From: an uncultured Gemmatimonadaceae bacterium
GTDB lineage: Bacteria; Gemmatimonadota; Gemmatimonadetes; Gemmatimonadales; Gemmatimonadaceae
Direction: 5' to 3'
DNA: 64,000 nt
Assembly (NCBI GenBank): GCA_963781585.1
Contig: CAWAGQ010000013.1
Coordinates: 64,001 to 128,000, forward strand
In this document: positions 50,595-64,000 of the stretch, one piece after another
How the letters are laid out: each line of letters opens with the position of its first letter
Numbering within the stretch: position 1 is the first letter of the stretch
Translations under genes and position numbers: made by a program
Notes under the pieces: model-generated
What the model was told of the DNA's origin: nothing
What the model saw: the letters and a program-made list of their open reading frames with translations, nothing else
The model's database searches: none

Positions 50595-51527
50595 TCACAC
50601 GGTTGCGTGCGACGTGCGGCGTGCAGCGTCGGGGGCCATTGACACCGGCGGGAGTTCGGGCAGCCGCCGGGTCCAGGCGCGTACCAGGACGCGCAGCAGT
50701 TCCGTGCGGCGGACAACCGCGCGCCGGGAGAACGAGTCGAATTCGATTGCCTCAATCGCCGCGAGGATCCCGGCATAGCCGGAAGCGCAGGCGAGGGCAC
50801 AGCGCTGCGCGTCAGATTGAAGCAGCGCAATTCCAGGTGTGGCGGCTCGATAGAGTTCACGGGCCCGCGCGATCTGGAATCGCATCAGGGCGCGCCACGA
50901 TGCGACCGCGCGGACGGCGGTGCCGTCGAGGACCTGTTCGCGCGACAGGGAGAAACGCCGCAGGTCCTCATCGGGAAGATAGACGCGGCCGCGCGCGGCA
51001 TCCTCCCCGACGTCGCGGAGTATGTTGGTCAACTGCATCGCGAGTCCGAGCGTGCGCGCGTGTCCGAGGGCGCGCTCGCGTTCGTCGGCGCCCCCGGTCG
51101 TGCCGAAGACGGCGGTGCACATCTCGCCCACGCTGCTGGCGACAGCGCGGCAGTAGCGCTCGAGATCGTTCCAGGTCGCGTAATGCGCGTACGAAAGGTC
51201 CCGCTCGACGCCGGCGAGAAGTGCTTCGAACGGCGCCCGCGGAATCTCGAAGCGGGCCATGGCGCGCAGGAGCTCGCGAAGCACCTCGTCCCGCGGCGTC
51301 TGGTGCATCGCCGCATGGAACGCATTCCGGTACTCCCGCAGTCGCGAGAGCGCGGTGGCCGCACCCTGCGGATCCGTCGCCAGGTCGACGATATCGTCTG
51401 CGGTACGGCAGAATGCGTAGACGGCATACACGCCACGCCGTTTGTGGCGTGGAAGCAGCCGGCTCGCCAGCGCAAAGGTCCGTGCGTGGCGGAGCACCAT
51501 CCGCTTGCAGCTGGCGGCATCGTTCAC
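50595..51527 (-). CDS. crtB: Phytoene synthase
   Basis: ARTF..ASRLLP, VYAFCRTADDIVD, YC..VASSVG, QLTNILRDVGED..RGRVYLP; GTG 51527 inferred as start. Confidence 0.93.
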   Translation of the reverse strand: MNDAASCKRMVLRHARTFALASRLLPRHKRRGVYAVYAFCRTADDIVDLATDPQGAATALSRLREYRNAFHAAMHQTPRDEVLRELLRAMARFEIPRAPFEALLAGVERDLSYAHYATWNDLERYCRAVASSVGEMCTAVFGTTGGADERERALGHARTLGLAMQLTNILRDVGEDAARGRVYLPDEDLRRFSLSREQVLDGTAVRAVASWRALMRFQIARARELYRAATPGIALLQSDAQRCALACASGYAGILAAIEAIEFDSFSRRAVVRRTELLRVLVRAWTRRLPELPPVSMAPDAARRTSHATV

Positions 51528-51529
51528 GA

Positions 51530-51577
51530 TGCGGAAGGGGGGACTCGAACCCCCACGGTTGTCCCACGGGATCCTAA
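51530..51577 (-). pseudogene. Orphan 3' half of a tRNA-Leu(TAG); attachment-site remnant
   Basis: Minus strand TTAGGA-TCCCG-variable arm-GGGGG TTCGAGT CCCCC-CTTCCGC-A; no matching 5' half seen in the window. Confidence 0.88.
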
Positions 51578-51596
51578 AAATTATTTCCCCTTCTAG

Positions 51597-51681
51597 TGCG
51601 GGCGGAGGGATTTGAACCCACAAGTCCTTTTGGGACAACGGCTCCTAAGGCCGTCGCGTATGCCAGTTCCGCCACGCCCGC
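51597..51681 (-). tRNA. tRNA-Leu(TAG), complete, 85 nt, CCA not encoded
   Basis: GCGGGCG/CGCCCGC acceptor stem, D-loop with TGG, ACGGC-CTTAGGA-GCCGT anticodon arm, long variable arm, GTGGG-TTCAAAT-CCCTC, discriminator A. Confidence 0.95.
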
Positions 51682-51697
51682 GCTTCGATTTTTCGCC

Positions 51698-51737
51698 TAG
51701 TGTCCCTCTTGGTGTCCCTCTCGTCTAGTGGCACCCT
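51698..51737. repeat. Tandem 12-bp repeats, candidate integrase arm-type sites
   Basis: TAGTGTCCCTCT (51698), TGGTGTCCCTCT (51710), degenerate TAGTGGCACCCT (51726). Confidence 0.6.
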
Positions 51738-51740
51738 GGA

Positions 51741-51749
51741 ATTCTAACA
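51741..51749 (-). promoter_or_regulatory. Extended -10 promoter candidate for the element-borne tRNA
   Basis: Minus strand TG-T-TAGAAT, about 60 nt upstream of the tRNA 5' end. Confidence 0.45.
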
Positions 51750-52414
51750 GGGCGGCGAAGAACAAGGCGACACCTGGGTCTGACACAGCCCCGTGTTTTA
51801 CCCCCATGCGATTTTACCCGAACTTCCGCGAACAACCTTCACGGGAGTTGTTGTGATGGCCAAAAGAGATAAAGAGAAGACTGGGGATTGCGCCGGAGAA
51901 CGGACTACTAAGGGTCACGTCATGTACGGCGTCGGCAAGTCAACGACGAGACATACGTCATCACGCGCCTGACGCCTCGGTACGCCCAGTACATGCTCGC
52001 GCTCACGCTTGATCGTGGCGATGCCATTGTGCTATCGGCAGACAATGAGGGGAACCTGCTACTGAGGGCGGCTTCGACCAGTGGGCGTTCGACTCGTTTC
52101 AGGATGCCTATCTCTGTGCGCGGGACCTCCTCGGCGTCGGTAATCCGGGGTTTGCGGCAACGTCGTGGTCGAGGACTGGAAATCGGAAGGCGAAAACGAA
52201 CGCCGAACCGGCATGGCGGACCTTGATCGTTCGCAAGCTCGAAGCGTTGATCGCCGACACGGAACGGAAGATGAAGGAAGAACAGGCAGCACAAAGCAAT
52301 ATCGCCTAACGTCATACGTCTGCGTGGCTTTGGTGTCCCATTGGGGTAAGATTTGACTATCAGCTCGTTAGGCGCTCGACCCTCAGTCGGACACCAATCA
52401 GCCACGGAGGTCAG

Positions 52415-53860
52415 ATGATCAAGAAACTCTCACCACCACCCACGGAATCGCCGCTCGGTCGTCGAGAGCGCGGGCACGGAAAACTCGTGTGCTGGCCGTA
52501 CCGCACGCCGGCTGACCGTCTCGCGGGCGTCGCCGTTCCATATGGATACGACGCGCGAGGCCGGGCGCTGTGGAAGTTCGTCCTCCGGCTCGACGGTAAG
52601 GCGGTCGTGATCCCAGCCCGTGACTGGCCGCACGCCAACAACGAGTCGCTGAAACGCCTCGGCAAGTGGGATGAGATCGTTGCCGCGAAGGCGGCGAGGA
52701 AAGAAGCGCGCAAGGCTCGGATCACCGGCATAGCCGCCAGTGAGGGATGGAGGTACGCCGACCTGACGCGCGAATGGCTAGCCCACAAGCATCAGCAGGG
52801 CAGGGCACGGCCCTCGACGCTCGCGGGGTACGCGGACGACCTCAAGCGTCACTTCGACCCGTTCTTCAACGTGAAGCTCGACAACCCGGCGCTCGCCGAA
52901 ATCACGCCGGTTGCCATTTCGGCTTTTCGTGCCGCAGTCACGGGGGCAAAGGGTGACCGGCGTCGCGAGAAATGGAACAAGCTGTTTTCACGAGGTTGGG
53001 AGATCTTTGAGTTCGCCCGCGCTCTCGGGAAGATCGACCGCAACCCGTGGATCGCGCCCGTTCATCGCTATCCCGAGCGAACCCGCGACGCGGAGCAGCA
53101 GACCACTGTAATTCCGGCGACGCAGTTGGATCTGATCCTCGACGAGGCCGAGAAGCTCGATGACCCTCGCGTTTCCGTCGCGGTGCTACTCGCTGGGTAC
53201 GGCGGCCTTCGGCTCGACGAGATGACGCACGTTCGCGTCGGCGACCTCACCGTCACCGACACGCTGGTGGATCTGAAGGTAACCAGTGGCTTTCCCTGCT
53301 CGTGCTCATCGTGCGCGAAGGACGGCAACAAGCACCTGACGAAAAATGGGACGACGCGCTACGTGCCGTTCTTGCCTGAGCACGGACAACGGTTCGCTGC
53401 ACATGTCGAACGGCTTCGCACCGCCGGCGTGAGCGGTCCCGAGACGTGGCTGCTCGCCTGCCTCGAACGGCAGCGTCGGTCGAAAGCGAAGCCGGGCAAC
53501 ATGGTCAGGCGCGATACCATCGCGGGAGCGGTCGAGGGACTCGTCGCACGGACGCTCGGTCTCGCGCCGGTCGTCTCGAAAAAGAAGGCCAAAAACAAGT
53601 CCGGACAGATCCGCGATGTGACGCGGACGCGCTACAAGCTGCCGAAGGGAGAGCGCATCCACGTACTACGCCACGCGGCGCGGACTCGGCTCTCGCATCT
53701 CGGCCTGCCGAGCGAGACCATAGACCTCATCATGGGTCACCGGCTCACGGGGATGCGCGGCACGTACACGCATCAGGACCGCGCTGCCGCGTATCGGCTC
53801 CTCTGCGAGAAAGCAGGCAGGAATCTTCCGAGCCCGGTGCAACTCGTCCGGAGCGCCTAA
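52415..53860 (+). CDS. Tyrosine recombinase/integrase
   Basis: GGAGG RBS; GLRLDE (R), TKNG (K), HVLRH, MGH....GTY catalytic residues; adjacent to the att site. Confidence 0.93.
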   Translation: MIKKLSPPPTESPLGRRERGHGKLVCWPYRTPADRLAGVAVPYGYDARGRALWKFVLRLDGKAVVIPARDWPHANNESLKRLGKWDEIVAAKAARKEARKARITGIAASEGWRYADLTREWLAHKHQQGRARPSTLAGYADDLKRHFDPFFNVKLDNPALAEITPVAISAFRAAVTGAKGDRRREKWNKLFSRGWEIFEFARALGKIDRNPWIAPVHRYPERTRDAEQQTTVIPATQLDLILDEAEKLDDPRVSVAVLLAGYGGLRLDEMTHVRVGDLTVTDTLVDLKVTSGFPCSCSSCAKDGNKHLTKNGTTRYVPFLPEHGQRFAAHVERLRTAGVSGPETWLLACLERQRRSKAKPGNMVRRDTIAGAVEGLVARTLGLAPVVSKKKAKNKSGQIRDVTRTRYKLPKGERIHVLRHAARTRLSHLGLPSETIDLIMGHRLTGMRGTYTHQDRAAAYRLLCEKAGRNLPSPVQLVRSA

Positions 53861-53941
53861 CGCCGACTCACCATCAGGTGAATACAAGGGCGTATATTTG
53901 ACTACATCGTAAATGGCTGGGCGCATCGCCAGCCCACCACG

Positions 53942-53984
53942 GAGCCGGGTGACGGGGGAGCCCTCGTTCCCCGGCTCTCTTTAT
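53942..53984 (+). terminator. GC-rich hairpin with T-rich tail downstream of the integrase
   Basis: GAGCCGGG...CCCGGCTC outer stem, inner GACGGGG/CCTCGTT stem, then TCTTTAT. Confidence 0.5.
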
Positions 53985-53998
53985 CACCGGAGTAATGC

Positions 53999-54175
53999 AT
54001 GAAAGCCAAGCGAAGGAAGACCCGCCCGTCAGCCACCCGCGCCGAAAGCATCCGGCGATCCTGGCAAGTTCAGTCGATTCGCCAGCGTCGGTCTGAGGGC
54101 GTACGGCGGTACCACGAGCGCGCCCGCGCCGCCCTCGAAGCGCAGGAACGCGAAGGTGGCATGGCCACGACGTGA
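53999..54175 (+). CDS. Small basic protein, 58 aa (MKAKRRKTRPSATRAESIRRSWQVQSIRQRRSEG...)
   Basis: GGAG RBS 6 nt upstream; below the ORF-track length cutoff. Confidence 0.5.
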   Translation: MKAKRRKTRPSATRAESIRRSWQVQSIRQRRSEGVRRYHERARAALEAQEREGGMATT

Positions 54176-54284
54176 GAGGTTGCTACCGCGCACCACGGTA
54201 GTCTGGTTGGGCACGACGAAAGAGAAGCGCGCCTCGGAGCCGAATCCGAAGGCGCGCACCTGAACCCGACAACTCAAATCAACA

Positions 54285-56183
54285 ATGGAATCGCAGGATA
54301 ATATCTCATCGCCGCTCGTCCAGCGGTTTTGCGACCTGTTTCAAGCTGCGGCGGTATCCGCGACCGCGACCGCTGCCTTCGCTCTCGTCGCGCACGCGGC
54401 GACACCCGTGGAAGCGGCGCACGCATATGCGTCCGCCGGGTTTCCCGTCATCGCGTGGCGAGCTGGCGCGGACGGTGCAAAGGTGCCGCTCATCGACGCG
54501 TGGCCGAGTGCTGCGACGAACGATCCCGGCGCGGCGGTGCGCTGGTGGGACCGCTGGCCCGACGCGGGCGTGGGGGTGGTCCTCGACGCCGGCTGGTGCG
54601 TCGTTGACATCGACGGCGACGATGGCCTACGGACGCTCGTCGAACGCGTTCAGCTTGGCGGACTGCCACTCGGCCCTCGCGTTAAGACTGGACGCGGGTA
54701 CCATCTATGGTATCGCGTTCCGCCCGCGCTCCAGTCAGGGCTTCGGAACGCGGCGAATGGCAAGGTTGAGTTCTACGTCGAGGCCCGCAAGCGATTCTTC
54801 GCCGCGCCGCCGTCGATACACCCGACCGGCGTCGCATACGCGTGGGAACACGCCGAGCTGCCGGTACCTGATCTTCCCGCCGACGCGTTCCGGTGGCTCA
54901 TCGACGTTGACGGCGACCACAGCGCGTCCAAGCCGAACGTGGCCGCGCCGCTTGTCGGTCGCCACGACGACCTATTTCGGGCGCTGTGCTCCATGCGGGC
55001 GCGCGGGTTCGACGAGGACGCAATCGAAGCCGCAGCCCAAAAGCAAAACGAAGCGTTCGCGGATGGTCCGCTCCCGGCCACGGAACTCGCGCGCATCGTG
55101 ACGATGGTCAACCGTTATCCGCTCGGGACGGCGCTGCCGAATCGTCCGACGACGCACGGCCTCACGCTCCGCCGCTACGACGAGATCGAGGAACGCCCGC
55201 TGTCGTGGGGGTGGCGCGGCGTGCTGCCGCGTCGGACGCTCTCGACCGTCGTGGGGGAACCCGGTCTCGGCAAGAGCCTCGTGACTTGCGACCTCGCGGC
55301 GCGATTTACGCGGGGCGAGGCGATGCCGGGCGGGAGCGCGAACGGGTTCGGCAGGCCGGTCAACGTCCTTATGATCGCCATCGAGGACGACCCCGAGGAC
55401 ACGATCAAGCCCCGGCTCGACGCTGCGGGCGCGGACATGATGCGCGTCTTCGACGTTCGCATGAAGGTCGAGACGAGCGACGACATCGGCGCGCTGCCGA
55501 CGTTCCCGGACGACGTGCCGCGCCTGTTCGAGCTAGTCCGTGAGCACGACATCAAGGTCATCATCGTCGACCCGATCACCGCCTGTCTCTCCGACAAGGT
55601 GAACGCCTGGAAGGACGCGGACGTAAGGCGGGCGCTCGCGCCGTTGATCACGCTGGCCCGCGAAGTGGATGCGGTGGCCCTCGGCGTTATGCACGTGAAC
55701 AAGAACGAGACGCAAAGCGCGATCAACCGTGTCGCCAACTCGAAGGCCTTTACGGCAGTCCCGCGCGCCGTGTGGTGGCTCGGCCGCGACCCCGAAGACG
55801 AGGCACATCAAGTGCTTGTTTCGGTCAAGTTCAATGTCGGGCCGAAAGATAAGAGCTACGGCTTCTGCATCACGGGCTTTGACGACAAGGCCCCGCGGGT
55901 GGCGTGGGACGCCGCGCCGGGAACCTTCACGGCGAAGGACCTCCAGCGGCCCCCGCTCGACGAACGGCGAGACGGGAGGTACGAGGCCGCCCTGCTCCTC
56001 TTGCAGCACCTCGGCACGGGGCTCGTCGTCGAAAGCCGCGAGATCAAGGAAGCGGCGAAGGGCAGAGGAGTCGGTGAGAAAACGCTCGAACGGGTCGCGA
56101 AGGAGTTTGGGGTCGTGATCACGCGGACCTCGGAAGTGCCGTCGCGCACCACGTGGCGGTGGCCGTCGCGACTGACCTACTAG
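54285..56183 (+). CDS. Primase-polymerase + PriCT + AAA (RepA-like) helicase replication protein
   Basis: AHAYASAGFPV, KVP, VVDID, TGRGYHLWY, APPSIH; GRHDDLF; Walker A GEPGLGKS, Walker B IIVDP. Confidence 0.9.
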   Translation: MESQDNISSPLVQRFCDLFQAAAVSATATAAFALVAHAATPVEAAHAYASAGFPVIAWRAGADGAKVPLIDAWPSAATNDPGAAVRWWDRWPDAGVGVVLDAGWCVVDIDGDDGLRTLVERVQLGGLPLGPRVKTGRGYHLWYRVPPALQSGLRNAANGKVEFYVEARKRFFAAPPSIHPTGVAYAWEHAELPVPDLPADAFRWLIDVDGDHSASKPNVAAPLVGRHDDLFRALCSMRARGFDEDAIEAAAQKQNEAFADGPLPATELARIVTMVNRYPLGTALPNRPTTHGLTLRRYDEIEERPLSWGWRGVLPRRTLSTVVGEPGLGKSLVTCDLAARFTRGEAMPGGSANGFGRPVNVLMIAIEDDPEDTIKPRLDAAGADMMRVFDVRMKVETSDDIGALPTFPDDVPRLFELVREHDIKVIIVDPITACLSDKVNAWKDADVRRALAPLITLAREVDAVALGVMHVNKNETQSAINRVANSKAFTAVPRAVWWLGRDPEDEAHQVLVSVKFNVGPKDKSYGFCITGFDDKAPRVAWDAAPGTFTAKDLQRPPLDERRDGRYEAALLLLQHLGTGLVVESREIKEAAKGRGVGEKTLERVAKEFGVVITRTSEVPSRTTWRWPSRLTY

Positions 56184-56479
56184 CACGCGGTGTCGCGTGT
56201 AACCAATGATACAAATCCACGGACCGAAGGTTATAAAAAGTAGGAGTGTCTCAACCAGGAGGAAGAATCGCGTAACTCGTTGGCACCTAACGCCGCTTCC
56301 AGTCGCGACACTTCGCGTGAAAAGGGCAGTCGCGACACGCGTCATTCACGGTGGGGCGGAGCCTCCGCTTCCAGTCGCGACACGGCGGGTCGAATACAGG
56401 GAGGCCTGGCCTACAGCCTCGCTGAATGCCCCGGAAAATGCCTGCCGCGACCACGGCGGGACACCAGCGCGGGACACCA
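56165..56479. repeat. Putative replication origin: iterons flanking an AT-rich patch
   Basis: CAGTCGCGACAC x3 (two within CCGCTTCCAGTCGCGACAC at 56293 and 56365, one at 56327); inverted partial copies at 56165 and 56190; AT-rich 56200-56245; GCGGGACACCA x2 (56456, 56469). Confidence 0.75.
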
Positions 56480-56709
56480 CCGCCCGGCCGATTGTAACAA
56501 GCTCACATAAGTGCTGTCGTGGCAAAGCTTTATGCACAAAGACTATCATATCAGGTACGCTAGTTCGTCTTCGCGACAAGCCCCTAGAACACGCTCAGAC
56601 CGCCTCGCGTGCCGCCGACCTATTTCTCCCTGTCCTCACGCACGGATTGCCCTTACCGTGGCATCTGGTGCCACCACCAACCGGTTCGCTGGACCTAACG
56701 AGTTCCTCA

Positions 56710-57312
56710 ATGAAGAACCCAAAGGAAGTGAAAGCGCCGCCCTTCCCAGACCTGCTCGCTGCGCTCGACCAGTACGATCCGCGGCTATCTGCGGAGGTGC
56801 GCGCCCTCCTCGCAGAGCTAAGAAGGGTCATCGCGGAGACCGGAGCGGCAACGGGAGGAGAAGGGCTGTCCGAAACCGCAGTCACAACGATCAAAGACAT
56901 CGCGACCGCCCACGTCGGCTCCGCGATGTACAACCAGCTCTCGTTGCAGTACTCGGCGGGTCTCCCGCTGAATAAGGGCGGCGAGAAGCGGGGCGTGATT
57001 CTGAGAGCGATGGAGAAGGCAAACCCTTGGTTCAGCGCGGCACGGTTCAAGGGGATGGATGGTCGCTTGCTTAAGAAGCCAAGCGGTCAGGCTAATCTGC
57101 GGGCGCGCGGCCGTGCGGCAGCCAAGGCGCGCGAGCTTCCGCGCGTGGACATTGACGAGCTGACTGAGCGTGAGGGCGACGCCATTTACGCGGAACTAAA
57201 GGCGGAGGACCAAGCGCGGCTCGCCGCCGGGAAGCGACCGCGGAAGTCCGTCGAAATCCAAAGGCAAGCGGAGGTGCGCGCCGCCCGTCGCCTAAAGGAG
57301 CGCGGCCAGTGA
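56710..57312 (+). CDS. Hypothetical protein, 200 aa
   Basis: ATG 56710 within the long ORF; its upstream extension only reads through the iterons. Confidence 0.65.
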   Translation: MKNPKEVKAPPFPDLLAALDQYDPRLSAEVRALLAELRRVIAETGAATGGEGLSETAVTTIKDIATAHVGSAMYNQLSLQYSAGLPLNKGGEKRGVILRAMEKANPWFSAARFKGMDGRLLKKPSGQANLRARGRAAAKARELPRVDIDELTEREGDAIYAELKAEDQARLAAGKRPRKSVEIQRQAEVRAARRLKERGQ

Positions 57313-57465
57313 CAGCGCTGTATCGGACTCGTTAGGGCCATCACGGTACCTTGAAAAACGTATCGAGGCCTCACGCCTCGACGCGCTACGGACGACGGTC
57401 GGCCAGCGGAACTGAAAATCTCCGCCGCTGGTCGGCCGAAGCCCCGGACCTCAAGGAATACCAAG

Positions 57466-58068
57466 ATGGCAACAACCACCAAGCCAGAAACGCTCGACCA
57501 GAGGCGCGCTCGCCTACAGGGCGAGTGCAATCACCTCACGTGTGACGCGCGGGATGCGCTCGAGGAGAAGCTGATTGCGGCAGATACAGCGGAGAAGGCG
57601 GCCGCTACGGCCGACGACGGACCCGCATGGCAAGCCGCTCGACGAGCCAAGGCCGACCTGATTCAGGAGCGTGAGGAACTCGTCGCGAGCATCGAGGCGA
57701 AGCAGCTCGCGCTCAAAGAGTGTGAGTGGCAGATCGCCAAGCGAGACCGGGACGCCGGAATCCGCGAGGTGCAGGCGCACGCCAAGACTGCGGCCGACGT
57801 CGCGCCGGAGATCGTCGAAGCTGTCGAGACCCTCGCCGACGCCCTGCAGCGCTTCGCAGGCCAGTGCGCCGGGGTCTATCGCGCTGGCGCGGCGGTGGAC
57901 CACGACAACGAGCGCGGCCTTCGCGAGCTGACGTCGAAGGAACGCGTGTGGCGCGACGTGGAATATCACCTGCGCGCGGCGCTCGGACTTTCCACCGGCG
58001 CGTTCATTCACGGCACGGCGCTCGATCAGGCAAGCGAGCTAACAACGTACGCCGAGACGCTCCGATGA
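57466..58068 (+). CDS. Hypothetical coiled-coil protein, 200 aa
   Basis: AAGGA RBS; Ala/Glu/Arg-rich helical composition. Confidence 0.75.
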   Translation: MATTTKPETLDQRRARLQGECNHLTCDARDALEEKLIAADTAEKAAATADDGPAWQAARRAKADLIQEREELVASIEAKQLALKECEWQIAKRDRDAGIREVQAHAKTAADVAPEIVEAVETLADALQRFAGQCAGVYRAGAAVDHDNERGLRELTSKERVWRDVEYHLRAALGLSTGAFIHGTALDQASELTTYAETLR

Positions 58069-58301
58069 CGCCCGACCGCCGGGCGGAGCTTCGCACCGTC
58101 GCGCGTGCCTATGCCTTCGACGTCGCCTTCGGTGGCGCGCCGCTCGTCGGGGCGATGGCGCGCACCTGGGGCCACGCCGAATCACGCGAGGAATCCCGTC
58201 GCGTCCTCGCCGACTTCAATACTGCCTTCCGCCACTTCGCCCGTCGCGCCGGTCGCGCGGCGATCCGCTCCACACTTCGTGAGGTCCGCCGTGAGCGATA
58301 A
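58065..58301 (+). CDS. Hypothetical protein, 78 aa
   Basis: ATGA overlap with the upstream stop (MTPDRRAELR...). Confidence 0.6.
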   Translation: MTPDRRAELRTVARAYAFDVAFGGAPLVGAMARTWGHAESREESRRVLADFNTAFRHFARRAGRAAIRSTLREVRRER

Positions 58302-58647
58302 CACGTTCGTTCTACCGGCGAAAGCCGCACATGCGTTCCGACCGGGCGAGATGATTCCGGAGGACGGCTTCACCCGCTTCGTGCCCTACTTCCCTCGTCT
58401 GACCGGCGAGTCCGACGCCGCCTACGCGGCTCGGCTAGAAGCTGTCGGGTTAGCCGTAGTCATTACCTCCGAGGATGCCCGCGACATCGCTACGTACCGA
58501 GGACTCGTAACCGAGGCCGTAACGCGGAAGCTGCCTATCGCGATGCTGACCTCTCCGATTTCCGACGACCCGGGCGACGTGGACCTCGCGACTAGAGAAG
58601 CGGCGAAGGCGGCCGCCCTCGAAGCTGCGCACAGAGCCAAACCCTGA
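58291..58647 (+). CDS. Hypothetical protein, 118 aa
   Basis: GAGGT RBS, GTG start (SDNTFVLP...). Confidence 0.6.
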   Translation: MSDNTFVLPAKAAHAFRPGEMIPEDGFTRFVPYFPRLTGESDAAYAARLEAVGLAVVITSEDARDIATYRGLVTEAVTRKLPIAMLTSPISDDPGDVDLATREAAKAAALEAAHRAKP

Positions 58648-58661
58648 ACCGATACACTCCC

Positions 58662-58841
58662 ATGGCAAACAATTCGAAGCTTGACCCGTCCCCCACCTAT
58701 AGCCCGTCGCATCACGACATCGATGAGTGGCACCGCGCTCGTCAGGCTCCCGGCAACGCGCCCGCGAACTCGCCCGCCGCGCCGGGAAACGCGCCGCGTG
58801 AGAACGTCGAACGTCCCGAGAAGTCGAAGGACGGCCGATGA
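58662..58841 (+). CDS. Small Pro/Asn-rich protein, 59 aa (MANNSKLDPSPTYSPSHHDIDEWH...)
   Basis: Fills the gap; its stop overlaps the next ATG (ATGA). Confidence 0.5.
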   Translation: MANNSKLDPSPTYSPSHHDIDEWHRARQAPGNAPANSPAAPGNAPRENVERPEKSKDGR

Positions 58842-59206
58842 CCGCGACGGTCGGGCTGACGGTCGGCCTTACCGACGAAGACGAGCGCCTGATCGAGCGG
58901 CTGATCGACGCCGCGCTCGTCAGGCGCTTCGGATCGAGTAACGGCGCTCCCTCCGAGTCTGACCGGCTCGCTTCGTGGCGCGAGCGGCTTTGGACGTGCG
59001 CGCCGGATACGCGCCTGTTTGCCGACGAAGTCGCGGCGGCTCTCGGCGTGTCGAAGCGGACCGTCTACCGCTGGGTAGACGTGAAGCACCTTCCCTGCCG
59101 ACGCCGCGACGACGGGCTCGTGTTCCTCGCGGGTGACGTCCGAAGGTGGGCCGACGAACAGGAAACGGTGGTCAACTCGGCCGCGCGGCTTCGGAAGGTC
59201 GGGTGA
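58838..59206 (+). CDS. Excisionase/MerR-like HTH DNA-binding protein
   Basis: ADEVAAALGVSKRTVYRWV..LPC.R....VF..DVRRW. Confidence 0.85.
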   Translation: MTATVGLTVGLTDEDERLIERLIDAALVRRFGSSNGAPSESDRLASWRERLWTCAPDTRLFADEVAAALGVSKRTVYRWVDVKHLPCRRRDDGLVFLAGDVRRWADEQETVVNSAARLRKVG

Positions 59207-59210
59207 CGCC

Positions 59211-59474
59211 GTGACCTTCCGCGCGGCAAAGCGCCACGCGTCCCGCGAGGGACTTCGAATCCCCCGGCCTCCGAAGACGCTCGACGACGCCGTTAGGCTC
59301 GCGTCGTGGGTGTCGATCCAGGTCGCGCGCGGGAATATCAGCCATCACGACGCCCGCGCCATCACGGACGCGCTCAAGGAATTTCGCGAGCTGCTCGGCG
59401 TTCGCGACGCGAGGGTCGAGGCCGAGTCCCTGCGTCGCCAGATCGCTGAGCTAAAGGCGCGAGCCGGTGAATAG
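59211..59474 (+). CDS. Small helical protein, candidate terminase small subunit
   Basis: 87 aa, helical with C-terminal coiled coil; overlaps the terL start; function inferred from position only. Confidence 0.5.
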   Translation: MTFRAAKRHASREGLRIPRPPKTLDDAVRLASWVSIQVARGNISHHDARAITDALKEFRELLGVRDARVEAESLRRQIAELKARAGE

Positions 59475-60993
59475 GCGAGAGCTAGAGCGACTTCGCCGCG
59501 AACTCGGCGAGCTGGAAGAGCGGCTCTACGGCACCGCGCCGTGGCCCGACCTCTCCCGGTACGCCGGGCGCGCCCGCGCCTTCGCGGAAGACGTTTGCCA
59601 CGCGGTGCTGCTCTCCTGGCAGGGCGAGGCGTTTGACGCGCTCGACGCGAACCGGCTCCTTGCCGTCGCGTCGTGCAACGGCGCGGGCAAGACCGCGTGG
59701 GCGCCGCTCGCGCTCCTGTACGTGGCGGCGGTGCTCGGTGCGAAGGCCGTCTATCTGACCGCCAACGAGCGGACGGCGCGCACGACGATGGTGCGCGAGC
59801 TAAAGCGGTGGGTCCGCGCCGCGAAGCTGCCGTGCTCGGTCTACAACCACGGCGTCGAAACGCCTAACGGCGGCGTGATCCTCGTCCTGTCGCCCGCCGA
59901 GATGGAAGCGGCCGCGGGCCAGCACGACCCCGAGATGGTGGTGATCGTGGACGAGGCCTCGGCGCTCGAAGACGACATCTTCGAGGCGCTGATGGGCAAC
60001 GCCGTGTCGGAGCGCAACCGGCTGGTTCTGCTAGGCAACCCGCTCCGCGCCTCCGGACCGTTCGCGACTGCGCTCCGCGCCGCACAGGGCTGGTGGAAGC
60101 GCTTCGTGACCGCCGCCGAGGTGATGGCCGACGCGAACTATGCGAACATCGCGGGCCTCATCAGCAAGCCGGGCGTGGACGCGCTCCGTCAAACGTTCGG
60201 TGAGGAGTCGATGGCGTTCGCGAGCCGCGTATACGCGCGGCTTCCGGTCGCCGACGCGGACGCGCTCTATCCGGAGGCGCTGTTAGAAGCGGCCGTCGAG
60301 CGCTGGCGAGCCGGCACGCTTCGGAGGAAGCACGCGAACGCGCGTCTCAAGGCGGGGCTCGACCTGGCCGCGTCCGAGGACGGCGACGCGTCGGCGCTGG
60401 CGGTGGCCTTCGGCGGCGCGCACGTCGAGGCCATCCACACCATGCGGAGCCGCGACACGATGAAGGTCGCGGGCTGGGCGGTCGCCACACTCGGCGCGTA
60501 CAACGCGCGGCGTCGCCCTAGCTTCGCGATGGCCGAAGCCGTCCGGGACCTCGGCCTAACGAGCCCCGGCGATCCCCTCATCCAGCTTCGCGACGTGAGC
60601 ATCTATGGCGACGAGATCGCGTGGGGAAAGGGCTGCATCGACCGGCTCAAGGAGGCGGGCTTTGCGGCTTACGGCATCAATGTTTCACGACGACCGGCCG
60701 AGGCCGACAAGGCGGCGATCTACGCGAACGAGCGGGCGCGCATCGCCTACGCGTTCCGCGAAAGGCTGGTGCAGGGGACCGTGGCGATCCCACCAGACGA
60801 CGAGCTGCTGGAAGAACTACGCGCCTATAAGGCCTTCGCGAACAGCGCCGGGAAGCAGCAGTGCGTCAGCAAGGGCGAGCTTCGGCAGGTGCTCGGCCGA
60901 AGCCCCGACAAGATGGACGCGGTGCTGCTGGCGACGTGCGCGGACGCGTCGCCGACGTTCGACGCCGACGAGAGTGGCTTGATCGCGTTCTAG
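59467..60993 (+). CDS. Terminase large subunit
   Basis: Walker A SCNGAGKT, Walker B VVIVDEA, LLGNP coupling motif, nuclease GLDLA..D, DEIAWG, SPDKMDA. Confidence 0.85.
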   Translation: MNRRELERLRRELGELEERLYGTAPWPDLSRYAGRARAFAEDVCHAVLLSWQGEAFDALDANRLLAVASCNGAGKTAWAPLALLYVAAVLGAKAVYLTANERTARTTMVRELKRWVRAAKLPCSVYNHGVETPNGGVILVLSPAEMEAAAGQHDPEMVVIVDEASALEDDIFEALMGNAVSERNRLVLLGNPLRASGPFATALRAAQGWWKRFVTAAEVMADANYANIAGLISKPGVDALRQTFGEESMAFASRVYARLPVADADALYPEALLEAAVERWRAGTLRRKHANARLKAGLDLAASEDGDASALAVAFGGAHVEAIHTMRSRDTMKVAGWAVATLGAYNARRRPSFAMAEAVRDLGLTSPGDPLIQLRDVSIYGDEIAWGKGCIDRLKEAGFAAYGINVSRRPAEADKAAIYANERARIAYAFRERLVQGTVAIPPDDELLEELRAYKAFANSAGKQQCVSKGELRQVLGRSPDKMDAVLLATCADASPTFDADESGLIAF

Positions 60994-61514
60994 GTTGCGT
61001 CCAGCAACGCGTCGATGATGGTCATGCTCTCGCTGAGAGAATCGTAGCTCGGCCGATCAACCCAACCGAACCTCTCCTCGCCGGAGACAAACGCGGCACC
61101 GAGGAGGCTGCTAACCGGTATGACGCCAGGATAGCAGACCTCCACTGGTACGATCATTGGGAGGTGCTGGCCACAGCGCCGAGTTGCCTCGCGCGACGAC
61201 ACCGGAGCAGTCGGAAGCAAACCGCGATCAACGCAAAGTAGAACGGTCAACCTGTGGAGGAACACAAACCGCTCCCACTGACGATGCGTGTCGGGGTGGA
61301 ATACCTCTTCGGGTCGTGCTGCGGCGAAGTCAAAGAGCGAGATAGCGCCCAACTGCCGACAGCAGGAGTCGCGCGACTGCGGAAAGGTGTCCCGCATCGA
61401 CCCGTCCCAAGGTCTAATCTCGCCGCACTTTACGATCTCTGCGAAGTGACGAACGCTCGTCGCGTGTATAGGTCCCTTCAGAAGAATTCGATACAGCGGG
61501 TGTTCTTTCTCCAC
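60990..61514 (-). CDS. Hypothetical protein, possibly ADP-ribosyltransferase-like fold
   Basis: HATS..F.EI..CGEIRP ... ISLFD ... EVCYPGVIP pattern; GTG start 10 nt after the DUF4238 stop. Confidence 0.5.
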   Translation of the reverse strand: MEKEHPLYRILLKGPIHATSVRHFAEIVKCGEIRPWDGSMRDTFPQSRDSCCRQLGAISLFDFAAARPEEVFHPDTHRQWERFVFLHRLTVLLCVDRGLLPTAPVSSREATRRCGQHLPMIVPVEVCYPGVIPVSSLLGAAFVSGEERFGWVDRPSYDSLSESMTIIDALLDAT

Positions 61515-61524
61515 GGCGATGCCA

Positions 61525-62493
61525 TCAACAGTCGCGTTCCGCGTTTGGTGTCTGCGCGTCGGAGTCGGGCGCGCGGATGGGCTCGGGCTCGAACCACGCC
61601 GCCCTCGTTTCATTCTGGCAGACCACTATCTCGTCGTCGGCGTGGACGAGCGTGCGTTGATTGAGGATGTCGACAACCATTGGCGTCGTCTTCTGAAAGC
61701 CGCTAAGACCGGCGCGGTTGTAGACGAGGGTCTGACGCGGAGAGATTGGAAGCGTGACCTCCACGGTCGGATACATCAGACCTGGCGCCCGATGCAGGAA
61801 TGGACGCTTGTACGCCTCGGGGTCGAACACGACGCAGGGCGCGTCCGATGCGATGAATCCAAGGCGATCATCCGTGGAGAGAATCGCGAGATCCATTCCC
61901 ACGAGTAGCGACGCCATTGTCTCGATCGCCACAGCCATGCTGTTTTGAAGCGGCTCGCTCGCAAGTCGTCGTACGTCCGCATGACTCATGGTCTTAGCGC
62001 GATCCGATGGCGGCATCATCAGGCGAGCTATCTGCTCGCGCTCCTCGGGCGATCGCCTCATCATGTCGTCGTGAACTCGATCCAACGTTTCGAGAAGGCG
62101 TCCCCACTCCTTCCTCTGATGGTCGCGCTGTCGACGCGACCGCGAGTGCATCGCCGCAACGAAGACCGCCAGCATGAACTGGTCGAGCGGCTCAAGCTCG
62201 ACGCGCGCCTCAAACTTCTCGCGTCGCAGCGTCGAGAAGCGATCCTCCAATTCGCTGAGCCCACGTTCAAGCCGCAGGTCCCGAGCGCCTGACCGGCCGT
62301 GAATCGTGTACATGTCGGTCTCCGCGAAGATATTGTGCGGCGCCTTCCGACGGCCGGCACCGCCATTCCACGGGAACACCCACACGTACGGCTCCTGGCC
62401 TTCGGGCGTCGTGGGGTCGCACCATGCCGAGAGGTACGAACGGGGGACCCAGTGTTGTTTCTTGTGCTTCATGGAGCGAACCGAAATGGCCAC
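61525..62493 (-). CDS. DUF4238-family protein
   Basis: QHWVPRSYLSAW N-terminal motif, LE..LSELE, FIASDAP, LPISP; start 62493 or 62472. Confidence 0.82.
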   Translation of the reverse strand: MAISVRSMKHKKQHWVPRSYLSAWCDPTTPEGQEPYVWVFPWNGGAGRRKAPHNIFAETDMYTIHGRSGARDLRLERGLSELEDRFSTLRREKFEARVELEPLDQFMLAVFVAAMHSRSRRQRDHQRKEWGRLLETLDRVHDDMMRRSPEEREQIARLMMPPSDRAKTMSHADVRRLASEPLQNSMAVAIETMASLLVGMDLAILSTDDRLGFIASDAPCVVFDPEAYKRPFLHRAPGLMYPTVEVTLPISPRQTLVYNRAGLSGFQKTTPMVVDILNQRTLVHADDEIVVCQNETRAAWFEPEPIRAPDSDAQTPNAERDC

Positions 62494-62569
62494 TCGCGAC
62501 GTGCGACCGACGCGTCGCCTACCGTCGACTGATCGAGCGGCCGATAAGCCTTCTGACTGGCCCGATAAG

Positions 62570-62734
62570 CTACGGGACTAACCTGCCAGAGAACGCGGCG
62601 CTGATTACCTGTGAGATTGCGGCGTTCACCGCCTCGCGAGTTCCGCTCTTGAGTGCGGCACGTATGCGCTGTCCAAGCGGAGTCTGATCCTTCAGCGCAT
62701 CCGGCACGGAATTGAGAACGGTTAACCCCTTTAG
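62570..62734 (-). pseudogene. 3' end of a gene interrupted by the IS5
   Basis: Open frame LKGLTVLNSVPDALKDQTPLGQRIRAALKSGTREAVNAAISQVISAAFSGRLVP* running from the IS boundary. Confidence 0.6.
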
Positions 62735-64000
62735 CAGGGTGCTGAAAAAGGGTGGAAAACTTGCTGTTGCAGAACGGGAGAGCGATGCCTAACGTGGCGC
62801 GACCCCAATGGAGAGTCCCCGGTATGCGCGGCGAGAGCCCCCAGCAGACGATTCTGTTCAGCTATCGCTCGGTCGAGGACCGGATCCCGGTCGACCACCC
62901 CTTGCGCGTGATCCGCCAGCTCGTGGAACCCGTGCTGCGCGAGCTGTCCCCCCAATTTGACGTGCTGTACGCCAAGATCGGGCGGCCGTCGATTCCGCCG
63001 GAGCACTTGCTGCGGGCGCTCCTCCTCCAGGTGCTGTACACGCTCCGGAGCGAACGGCGCCTCATGGAGGAACTCGACTACAATCTCCTCTATCGCTGGT
63101 TCGTGGGACTGAATCCCGACGAGCCCGTGTGGGTGCCGACCGTGTTCACGAAGAACCGGGAGCGGCTCCTGGAGGGGGACATCGCGCACGCGTTCTTCGC
63201 GGCGGTCCAGCGGCAGGCCGAGGTGCGGCAGTTGCTCTCGCACGAGCACTTCACGGTGGATGGCACGCTCCTCGAAGCTTGGGCGAGCCAGAAGAGCTTT
63301 CGCCCGATCACCGAGGGGGGCGACGGACCCCAGGGGCCCACCCCACCGGCGGAGGCGGATGCCGCGAGTCGGCCGAAGAATCCGACGGTGAATTTCCGGG
63401 GGGAGAAGCGGTCGAATGCGACGCATCGGTCGAGGACGGATCCCGACGCGCGGCTGGCCCGGAAGAGCCGAAACACCGCCGCGATTCTCGGCTACCTGGC
63501 GAGTGTGATCATCGATAATCGCCACGGCTTGGTGGTGGCGACCGATGTGCGCGCGCCGGGCGGGCATGCGGAGGAGGAGGCCGGGCTCGAGATGCTGACC
63601 ACGCTGGAAAGCCACCGGCCGCACCGGACCCTCGGGGCCGACAAGGGCTACGATACCGAATCGTTCGTCACCGGGGCGCGGGACGCGGGGGTGACGCCCC
63701 ATGTCAGTCAGAACATTCACCCCCGCCGGCTTCGCAGCGCCATTGACGCGCGGACGACCCGCCACTCGGGCTACGAGATCAGTCAGCGCAAACGGAAACT
63801 GGTGGAGCAAGGCTTTGGCTGGGACAAAACCGTGGGCTTGCTGCGCAAACTCCGGCATCGCGGTCGCGAGAAGGTCGGCTGGATCTTCACGTTCACCAAT
63901 GCCACCTACAATCTGGTGCGGATCCGCACCCTGATCCGGGCCGGCGTATGCCCCTAACGTCGACCAGCGCGCGGAATCGCCGCCGCGATCGCGCAAAGGG
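62735..64000 (+). mobile_element. IS5-family insertion sequence (right end beyond window)
   Basis: Left end CAGGGTGCTGAAAAA preceded by TTAG; intact transposase. Confidence 0.85.
62824..63957 (+). CDS. IS5-family DDE transposase
   Basis: DHPLR, GRPSIPPE, YNLLYRWFVGL, VDGT, TDPDARL, ADKGYD, RKLVEQGFGW.K. Confidence 0.95.
   Translation: MRGESPQQTILFSYRSVEDRIPVDHPLRVIRQLVEPVLRELSPQFDVLYAKIGRPSIPPEHLLRALLLQVLYTLRSERRLMEELDYNLLYRWFVGLNPDEPVWVPTVFTKNRERLLEGDIAHAFFAAVQRQAEVRQLLSHEHFTVDGTLLEAWASQKSFRPITEGGDGPQGPTPPAEADAASRPKNPTVNFRGEKRSNATHRSRTDPDARLARKSRNTAAILGYLASVIIDNRHGLVVATDVRAPGGHAEEEAGLEMLTTLESHRPHRTLGADKGYDTESFVTGARDAGVTPHVSQNIHPRRLRSAIDARTTRHSGYEISQRKRKLVEQGFGWDKTVGLLRKLRHRGREKVGWIFTFTNATYNLVRIRTLIRAGVCP

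Follow-up and report, generated by a model that had tools for sequence, protein, structure and literature searches.

A virus-related element in a Gemmatimonadaceae genome that splits the host tRNA-Leu(UAG) gene at a six-base core and carries a tRNA-Leu(UAG) of its own

Structural reading of both ends of an integrated element, its comparison with the empty site in a genome of the same genus and tRNA searches throughout the assembly lead us to conclude, with considerable confidence, that a virus-related element of about 16 kb, targeted to the sequence TTAGGA, destroys the host gene for tRNA-Leu(UAG) and that the tRNA encoded by the element takes over the decoding of CUA. The mechanism that we propose involves two steps. 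Integrase-mediated site-specific exchange within a 6-bp core in the anticodon loop would split the host gene into two dead halves; given that attP and attB share only TTAGGA, both junctions lack a tRNA, with the host gene being lost as a result. The tRNA-Leu(UAG) of the element, which is located 19 nt inside the integrase-proximal junction and reads outwards, would then supply CUA decoding. Breaking a tRNA gene and replacing it has already been described for some phages, and the present case appears to match this known mechanism. Judging from the sequence comparisons, what would be new relative to the published cases compared here is the Gemmatimonadales host, the 6-bp core and the reversed orientation; further interest attaches to the small element that bears a homologue of the terminase large subunit (TerL) and to the presence of a rebuilding and a replacing design inside one integrase family.

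The window analyzed here is the whole stretch of 64,000 nt, G000:C13:64001-128000, where G000 is the studied assembly, in 17 contigs, of a soil bacterium of the Gemmatimonadaceae and C13 is its 566-kb contig. Positions without a contig name are window positions, and the features are collected in Table 1.

The split host gene, its two halves and the empty site

At the near junction, reading of the minus strand from 51577 to 51530 gives, in this order, the TTAGGA of an anticodon loop, the 3' strand of the anticodon stem, a long variable arm, a T arm (GGGGG/TTCGAGT/CCCCC) and an acceptor strand (CTTCCGC) with the discriminator A, i.e., 48 nt that represent positions 34-81 of an 81-nt type-II tRNA. 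These 48 nucleotides agree at every position with the 3' segment of the tRNA-Leu(TAG) gene that is intact at the syntenic site of the same-genus genome G001, so that the resemblance of this segment to a tRNA is not due to chance. ARAGORN detects no rebuilt tRNA at this junction. The first-pass annotation, which was made from the letters of the window, had described an orphan 3' tRNA half starting at the anticodon loop and, 19 nt away, a complete tRNA with the same anticodon and with different acceptor, anticodon and T stems and a different variable arm. The orphan half is borne out to the base by the minus-strand reading, the complete tRNA is recovered by both ARAGORN and Rfam (discriminator at 51597, core at 51572-51577), and alignment of the two tRNAs recovers each of the stated differences; the fragment is indeed not the usual duplicated att repeat, since it differs from the complete tRNA in every stem.

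The same annotation had predicted that the missing 5' half, beginning with GCGGAAG and ending with CGGGA plus the loop, would be found on the minus strand at the far end of the element, without a functional 3' half. BLAST and direct reading place this half on the minus strand at G000:C13:131591-131639, 3.6 kb beyond the end of the window, where it opens with GCGGAAG, passes through the D arm, reaches CGGGA with the loop CTTAGGA, and is followed by non-tRNA element DNA rather than by the remainder of a rebuilt GCGGAAG-type tRNA. At this far junction, no tRNA is detected by ARAGORN, or by Rfam even at E<=10. The two copies of the core are 16,019 bp apart.

The empty site, which the annotation had suggested looking for in relatives, was sought by searching the left flank in 41 genomes (G000 and 40 relatives). 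Among these, only the same-genus genome G001 matches the whole flank (87%), and the match ends at the core. Here G001 possesses an intact 81-nt tRNA-Leu(TAG) gene of the GCGGAAG type that adjoins crtB and is identical at 81 of 81 positions to the joined halves from G000. The tRNA gene matches in G001 are confined to this syntenic copy, and the GCGGGCG type carried by the element was not found in this 64% complete genome; the native gene of the island-free relative is of the GCGGAAG type. In pairwise BLAST, positions 1-1506 of the G001 sequence align with the far flank (89% over 1,510 nt) and positions 1501-1678 with the near flank (91.6%), and the two blocks overlap by exactly 6 nt, namely TTAGGA. 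Given that the bases beside the core differ between the two junctions, the shared core is exactly 6 bp and covers loop positions 33-38. The attB sequence reads CGGGA C TTAGGA TCCCG, i.e., the crossover core lies inside the 7-nt anticodon loop with the inverted repeat of the anticodon stem on either side. The 100% identity of the G000 halves to the G001 gene implies that the integration is recent. Thus, the suggestion that the host gene was destroyed through a very short core is supported, with TTAGGA as the core and neither junction rebuilt.

Two alternative explanations bear directly on these junctions. Most tRNA-targeting elements rebuild the gene that they enter (PMC10865867, PMC11476347), and a tRNA fragment directly beside a complete tRNA of the same anticodon is what ordinary tRNA-targeted integration could leave behind, with the GCGGGCG tRNA being native or rebuilt and the 48-nt fragment being a duplicated att repeat. 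We find this hardly credible because each stem of the fragment is different from its counterpart in the complete tRNA, because in the island-free G001 the site is occupied by an intact gene of the GCGGAAG type and the GCGGGCG type was not found, and because the matching 5' half lies 16 kb away and runs into non-tRNA DNA; the far end, the null result with Rfam and the empty site together refute it. An assembly chimera that joined unrelated DNA at tRNA-like repeats would be in line with the 7.2% contamination of the bin and with the same tRNA order in some contig pairs. The probability of such a misjoin is close to nil: both junctions are contained in one 566-kb contig, both flanks are syntenic with a single contig of G001, the breakpoints fall on the same 6 bases, and a repeat-driven misjoin gives no complementary halves 16 kb apart.

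As a separate observation on the assembly, the contig pairs C2/C6 (Ala-cgc followed by Gln-ctg) and C5/C8 (Cys-gca followed by Phe-gaa) show the same tRNA order with similar spacing; with contamination at 7.2%, such pairs may reflect the presence of two related genomes in the bin, or of large duplications.

The host flank at the near junction comprises lon, clpX, clpP, tig, phytoene desaturase, a carotenoid synthesis protein and crtB, and the flanking DNA is 87-92% identical to that of G001. The crtB gene starts with GTG at 51527, 2 nt past the 3' end of the split tRNA, and in G001 with ATG at the same place. Because in both genomes crtB begins 2 nt past the 3' end of the native tRNA-Leu(TAG), the arrangement suggests that the tRNA and the crt genes could form a co-transcript. 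It can also be observed that the crt genes are placed between tRNA-Leu(TAG) and tig-clpP-clpX-lon.

Table 1. Features of the split tRNA-Leu(TAG) locus and of the integrated element (window positions, unless a contig is named)
Feature	Position	Strand	Evidence or remark
crtB of the host (phytoene synthase), the first flanking host gene	50595..51527	-	Pfam SQS_PSY 5.2e-77
Orphan 3' part of host tRNA-Leu(TAG), attR-like junction	51530..51577	-	direct reading; 48/48 identity to the G001 gene
Common core TTAGGA (6 bp), copy at the near junction, positions 33-38 in the anticodon loop	51572..51577	-	empty-site BLAST overlap
Element spacer, 19 nt, between element tRNA and core	51578..51596	-	without counterpart in the G001 empty site
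Element-borne complete tRNA-Leu(TAG), GCGGGCG type	51597..51681	-	ARAGORN 51596-51681; Rfam tRNA 54.1 bits
GTGTCCCTCT motifs in tandem with period 12, candidate arm-type sites for the integrase	51699..51721	+	about 122 nt from core
Tyrosine integrase, 481 aa, open frame	52415..53860	+	Pfam PF00589 3.9e-09, PF14659; phrog_1 3e-25
PrimPol / PriCT_1 / AAA_25 replication protein (PrimPol-helicase)	54285..56183	+	Pfam; PHROG DNA polymerase/primase
HTH_17 protein, candidate excisionase or regulator	58838..59206	+	PF12728 3.7e-09; phrog_66 5.8e-08
Terminase large subunit (TerL) homologue, 508 aa	59467..60993	+	phrog_2 5e-17
DUF4238 cargo protein	61525..62493	-	PF14022 1.6e-31; without PADLOC match
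IS, 1,357 bp, DDE transposase	62732..64000, on to C13:128088 (88 bp past window end)	+	DUF772, DDE_Tnp_1
Integrated element, whole	G000:C13:115578-131590	.	16,013 bp without core; in-window part 51578..64000
Far copy of the core	C13:131591-131596	-	outside window

The element and its tRNA-Leu(UAG)

The translated integrase of the element displays the motifs GLRLDE, HVLRH and GTYTH, which correspond to the R, HxxR and Y motifs, and it is presumably this enzyme that made the two junctions. Its catalytic domain also contains, at residues about 295-315 (window 53300-53360), a Cys-rich insert (CSCSSC...H) that is kept in the family consensus and that may bind metal. By tblastn, the TerL homologue matches 128 phage records, and its identity to annotated TerL genes is 26-27% across about 90% of its length; a sequence search of PDB with this protein yielded no match. 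The IS has a second, 99.5% identical copy at C11:231040-232391, which marks it as a later arrival in the element; without it, the element measures 14.7 kb, and given the IS inside, the element may no longer be mobile. Neither capsid, portal and tail nor lysis genes were recognized in the 16 kb by Pfam, PHROGs or PADLOC, so that the term lysogeny may not apply to this element, and PADLOC found no defence genes among its 12 ORFs. The element may be satellite-like or defective.

The tRNA of the element is transcribed outwards, toward the junction and crtB. It shares with the host tRNA the anticodon TAG, the discriminator A and the layout of the D arm, and its Rfam score is well above the gathering score (29 bits), compared to 59.8 bits for the native copy in G001; a single mismatch in the T stem, U50.U64 (U.U), counts against a functional replacement. 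The window contains one tRNA, and of the 63 tRNAs predicted by ARAGORN in the 17 contigs, the element copy is the one Leu(tag) gene. Across 400 further genomes of the phylum, no match to this tRNA exceeds 80-81%, which argues that it is foreign to the G000 lineage; no donor turned up among these genomes, and a 28-nt piece of the tRNA has no exact match in IMG/VR. A simple scan for a sigma-70-like promoter upstream of the tRNA gave none, and such a scan may not suit this phylum.

Under the accepted rules of decoding, the CAG, GAG, UAA and CAA leucine tRNAs are not expected to read CUA. In 2,029 long ORFs of high GC3, CTA is rare, with 686 of 1,065,444 codons and 0.66% of the leucine codons, yet it is present in 530 of these ORFs. 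We infer that the host expresses the element tRNA, charges it by LeuRS and depends on it. The annotation had proposed that the element complements the gene that it destroys with its own tRNA, and had pointed to a search for other Leu(TAG) genes as a check. The search returned none besides the element copy (ARAGORN, 63 tRNAs, the 17-contig assembly), and the proposal gains support from the good form of this tRNA, its identical anticodon and its being the only Leu(TAG) gene found, its function being a deduction from these features.

It could be argued that the split is real and that the element tRNA is a passenger, either because another Leu(UAG) gene is unassembled or because poor decoding of CUA is tolerated. 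The assembly, in 17 contigs, is 93.5% complete with 7.2% contamination, so that a second Leu(UAG) gene may lie in unassembled DNA; moreover, CUA makes up only 0.66% of the leucine codons, and in some relatives the tRNA has two long matches. Nevertheless, we consider this distinctly unlikely, given the one Leu(tag) gene among 63 tRNAs, the restriction of the G001 matches to the syntenic copy and the occurrence of CTA in 530 of 2,029 long ORFs. Furthermore, a well-formed tRNA located 19 nt from the core is what would be expected if it had been selected along with integration, as in the replacement that we favor.

In the same ARAGORN output, several odd calls were observed (G000 C14:156433-156507, C7:24027-24121, C4:189888-189981, C13:349596-349691 and C16:34532-34627), including an anticodon tta ('Stop'), a 4-base anticodon and several tRNAs of 94-96 nt (Ala, Gly, Trp, Lys), all of which may be false positives or tRNAs with insertions.

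Replacement of the tRNA could have consequences beyond decoding. Because crtB starts 2 nt past the old tRNA, the crt operon is probably served by the promoter of the element tRNA in place of that of the host tRNA. This outward promoter may restore the transcription of an operon that was cut off from the promoter of the host tRNA.

The integrase family and its attachment sites

The integrase is rare and belongs to a small family. At E<=1e-10, a search of 5.8 billion proteins, with 7,999 candidates scored, gave 6 proteins including the query itself, and the integrase is present in 2 of 401 genomes of the phylum, G000 included. There is 1 locus (L016) among genome contigs (125 pattern stretches) and 3 among metagenome contigs (381 stretches), and no relatives were found in the 12 pattern stretches from IMG/VR. 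L016 comes from a Gemmatimonadales MAG that, by contig coordinates, is the same genome as G086 and G419.

In G419, a complete tRNA-Leu(TAG) (58 bits) is located upstream of the integrase gene in the same divergent geometry as in G000. An orphan 5' half lies 15.2 kb away, and the 5' half together with 40 nt upstream (80 nt) is repeated at 94%; a second orphan 5' half, 18 kb away, matches at 100% over 41 nt, its upstream sequence being different and of host type. Each unit of the locus is bounded by the 5'-half repeat. The locus can be read as a tandem pair of elements, each of which would bring an upstream region and a 5' half, such that the gene would be rebuilt from the 5' half of the element and the 3' half of the host, in a mirror image of the canonical 3'-half repeat. 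The G419 element shares with that of G000 the PrimPol protein (39.5% identical), the HTH_17 protein and TerL (39%). As an observation on its layout, the region at about G419:C15 18178-36283 (L016, L020-L022) forms a tandem array at one tRNA-Leu(TAG), with a 2.65-kb remnant and a 15.2-kb element.

Among the metagenomic loci, a complete tRNA-Leu(TAG) is located in L017 at 693 nt upstream of the integrase gene, and L018 contains, 10 kb past the integrase gene, a 42-nt stretch that is 100% identical to the 5' half of the L017 tRNA and is followed by element DNA; in L019, the region is absent altogether. Both L017 and L018 are consistent with the rebuilding design of G419, with at most one of the two ends visible on each contig. 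Thus, of the related loci with both ends on one contig, one of one (G419) rebuilds the gene, and G000 is the only family member seen to replace it. In L017, a match to the c-di-GMP-I riboswitch aptamer was also observed at 342-427 on the plus strand (36.4 bits, gathering score 35), between tRNA-Leu(TAG) and the integrase gene and upstream of the small ORF that precedes the latter; no such riboswitch was found in the G000 element.

The attachment sites of the family offer additional information. The tandem motifs upstream of the element tRNA are candidate arm-type sites. The sequence GGTGTCCC occurs 6 times in the 18-kb locus compared to 0.6 expected, with none of 200 shuffles reaching 6, and the sites include positions near the integrase gene and one in the P' arm. 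In L017, tandem GGTGCNCCTTC motifs are similarly placed, 106 nt from the core of that locus; L018 shows no enrichment of the G000 motif in its exact form. Core and motif are similarly far apart (122 nt in G000, 106 nt in L017), whereas the distance to the tRNA's 5' end differs (19 versus 72 nt), which implies that the spacing between arm and core was kept despite the extra 3' half and spacer (72 nt) in G000. On the other side, the stretch of element DNA that directly adjoins the far core can be aligned with its counterpart in L018, with TTAGGA at the same place, and the blocks common to both are CGTTAGGC and AGTGACAGGCGTTG-CAG--AAGGAC-TAGCG. Because the DNA at the far core is homologous to L018 with TTAGGA in the same position, and because the spacing of the arm sites is kept, comparison within the family indicates that the junction in G000 represents an authentic attP of this integrase family. 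A decayed tRNA 3' half past the far core was also considered and rejected, as the region shows no tRNA-like match and is homologous to the P' arm of L018 instead.

These sites also bear on whether the locus could be the frozen accident of a dead element, produced by illegitimate recombination or the decay of an att repeat, and not a working attP design. An IS is inserted in the element, no reads of an excised or circular form were obtained, and only a handful of relatives exist, all of which would fit such an accident. We nevertheless judge it unlikely: the core is at the same loop position as in the relatives, beside a conserved P' arm; the spacing between the arm sites and the core is kept despite the extra 72 nt; the integrase is intact; and the halves are 100% identical to the gene of the relative, as expected of a recent event. 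In a separate search of Logan contigs, only one run, from a soil metagenome, carried 0.06 of the sampled words, as scattered short pieces on the 18-kb locus, and no RNA run came up; the 'joints' encountered there, with 22-nt sides or 30 foreign letters between, were considered as excision products and rejected, being read as tRNA-Leu genes of other organisms.

The relatives would carry only the promoter and 5' half of tRNA-Leu(UAG) and would therefore have to match the 3' half of the host. By our reading of the stems, a hybrid of the element 5' half and the 3' half of the G000 host would mispair in both the acceptor and the anticodon stem; accordingly, the rebuilding design would fail in this host, and a whole tRNA avoids the mispairing. 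The comparison suggests that the replacement design could have arisen when the att core moved about 70 nt downstream. Somewhat speculatively, the integrase family may capture a switch from rebuilding to replacement, in which a rebuilt tRNA was caught together with 19 nt of former host flank upon excision at a downstream TTAGGA, the core being thereby moved about 70 nt; such a capture would be the simplest origin of the G000 design. If this is true, an element that brings a whole tRNA would no longer depend on compatible stems, and any host with a Leu(UAG) loop containing TTAGGA would be open to it. The pair that closes the loop of the element tRNA, which is C-G and not A-T, may spare this tRNA from the integrase of its own element.

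Given that the replacing element has a rebuilding sister, the family offers a natural comparison of the two designs, which bears on how they are related, a question that PMC10865867 leaves open. The case also implies that a foreign tRNA gene, only about 80% identical, can take the place of one that is native and inherited vertically, with possible effects on the downstream operon.

Comparison with known systems

The background against which the annotation had placed this element, namely that most tRNA-targeting elements rebuild the gene and that tRNA-dependent lysogeny occurs in some actinobacteriophages, agrees with the account in PMC10865867. tRNA-dependent lysogeny has been proven for actinobacteriophages (Guerrero-Bustamante and Hatfull, 2024, mBio, PMC10865867), with Fionnbharth/K4, Cluster L, Cain/K6, Gaia/X and Gordonia CQ2/DL among the examples given there; the cores tabulated in that paper measure 8-17 bp, and the related integrases described as rebuilding the gene go with a 3' half. 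The G000 element resembles these phages, as they are described there, in having a tyrosine integrase with attB in a host tRNA gene (in G000, probably single-copy otherwise), a core whose shortness does not allow the gene to be rebuilt, a cognate tRNA of its own, and close relatives with related integrases that rebuild the gene instead (PMC10865867). It differs from them in its Gemmatimonadales host and in being a 16-kb element with a TerL homologue. Its 6-bp core is shorter than any in the tabulated range of 8-17 bp (PMC10865867), and its rebuilding relatives carry the 5' half with the upstream region, not the 3' half.

Two further cases of phages with their own tRNAs come close to this arrangement. 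In Sinorhizobium meliloti, prophages resembling phage vB_MloP_Lo5R7ANS put tRNA-Leu(UAG) out of action and encode a copy of their own (PMC11476347, PMC12429752). The isoacceptor is the same as in G000, and central integration inactivates the gene (PMC11476347); moreover, the prophage tRNA-Leu(UAG) is reported to be at most 80.6% like that of the host, and the G000 pair differs in every stem. Unlike the G000 element, the S. meliloti examples are intact alphaproteobacterial prophages, and the likeness is drawn from the tRNA features given in PMC11476347. Prophage Lj965 of Lactobacillus johnsonii, according to its description in PMC10865867, has no rebuilt tRNA at a junction and encodes a cognate tRNA; its host, unlike that of the G000 element, belongs to the Firmicutes and it is a full prophage.

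With respect to orientation, elements that integrate in reverse and recombine with the 5' part of the tRNA are described as uncommon (PMC6563490, citing Zhao and Williams, 2002). The G000 element is like these integrators in being located on the 5' side of the surviving tRNA sequence (PMC6563490). The element in G419 is of the reverse-orientation type and contributes the 5' half together with an upstream region of its own. The G000 element departs from this type in that it has a whole tRNA and a 6-bp core, with both host halves orphaned and none rebuilt. An anticodon-loop class of tRNA-targeting tyrosine integrases was reportedly delineated by Williams in 2002. The G000 element has the features of such a class, its core covering loop positions 33-38 and its attB having the inverted repeat of the stem. 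Taken together, these comparisons would extend break-and-replace landing in tRNA genes to the Gemmatimonadota, as well as to a small element with a TerL homologue that may fall short of a complete phage.
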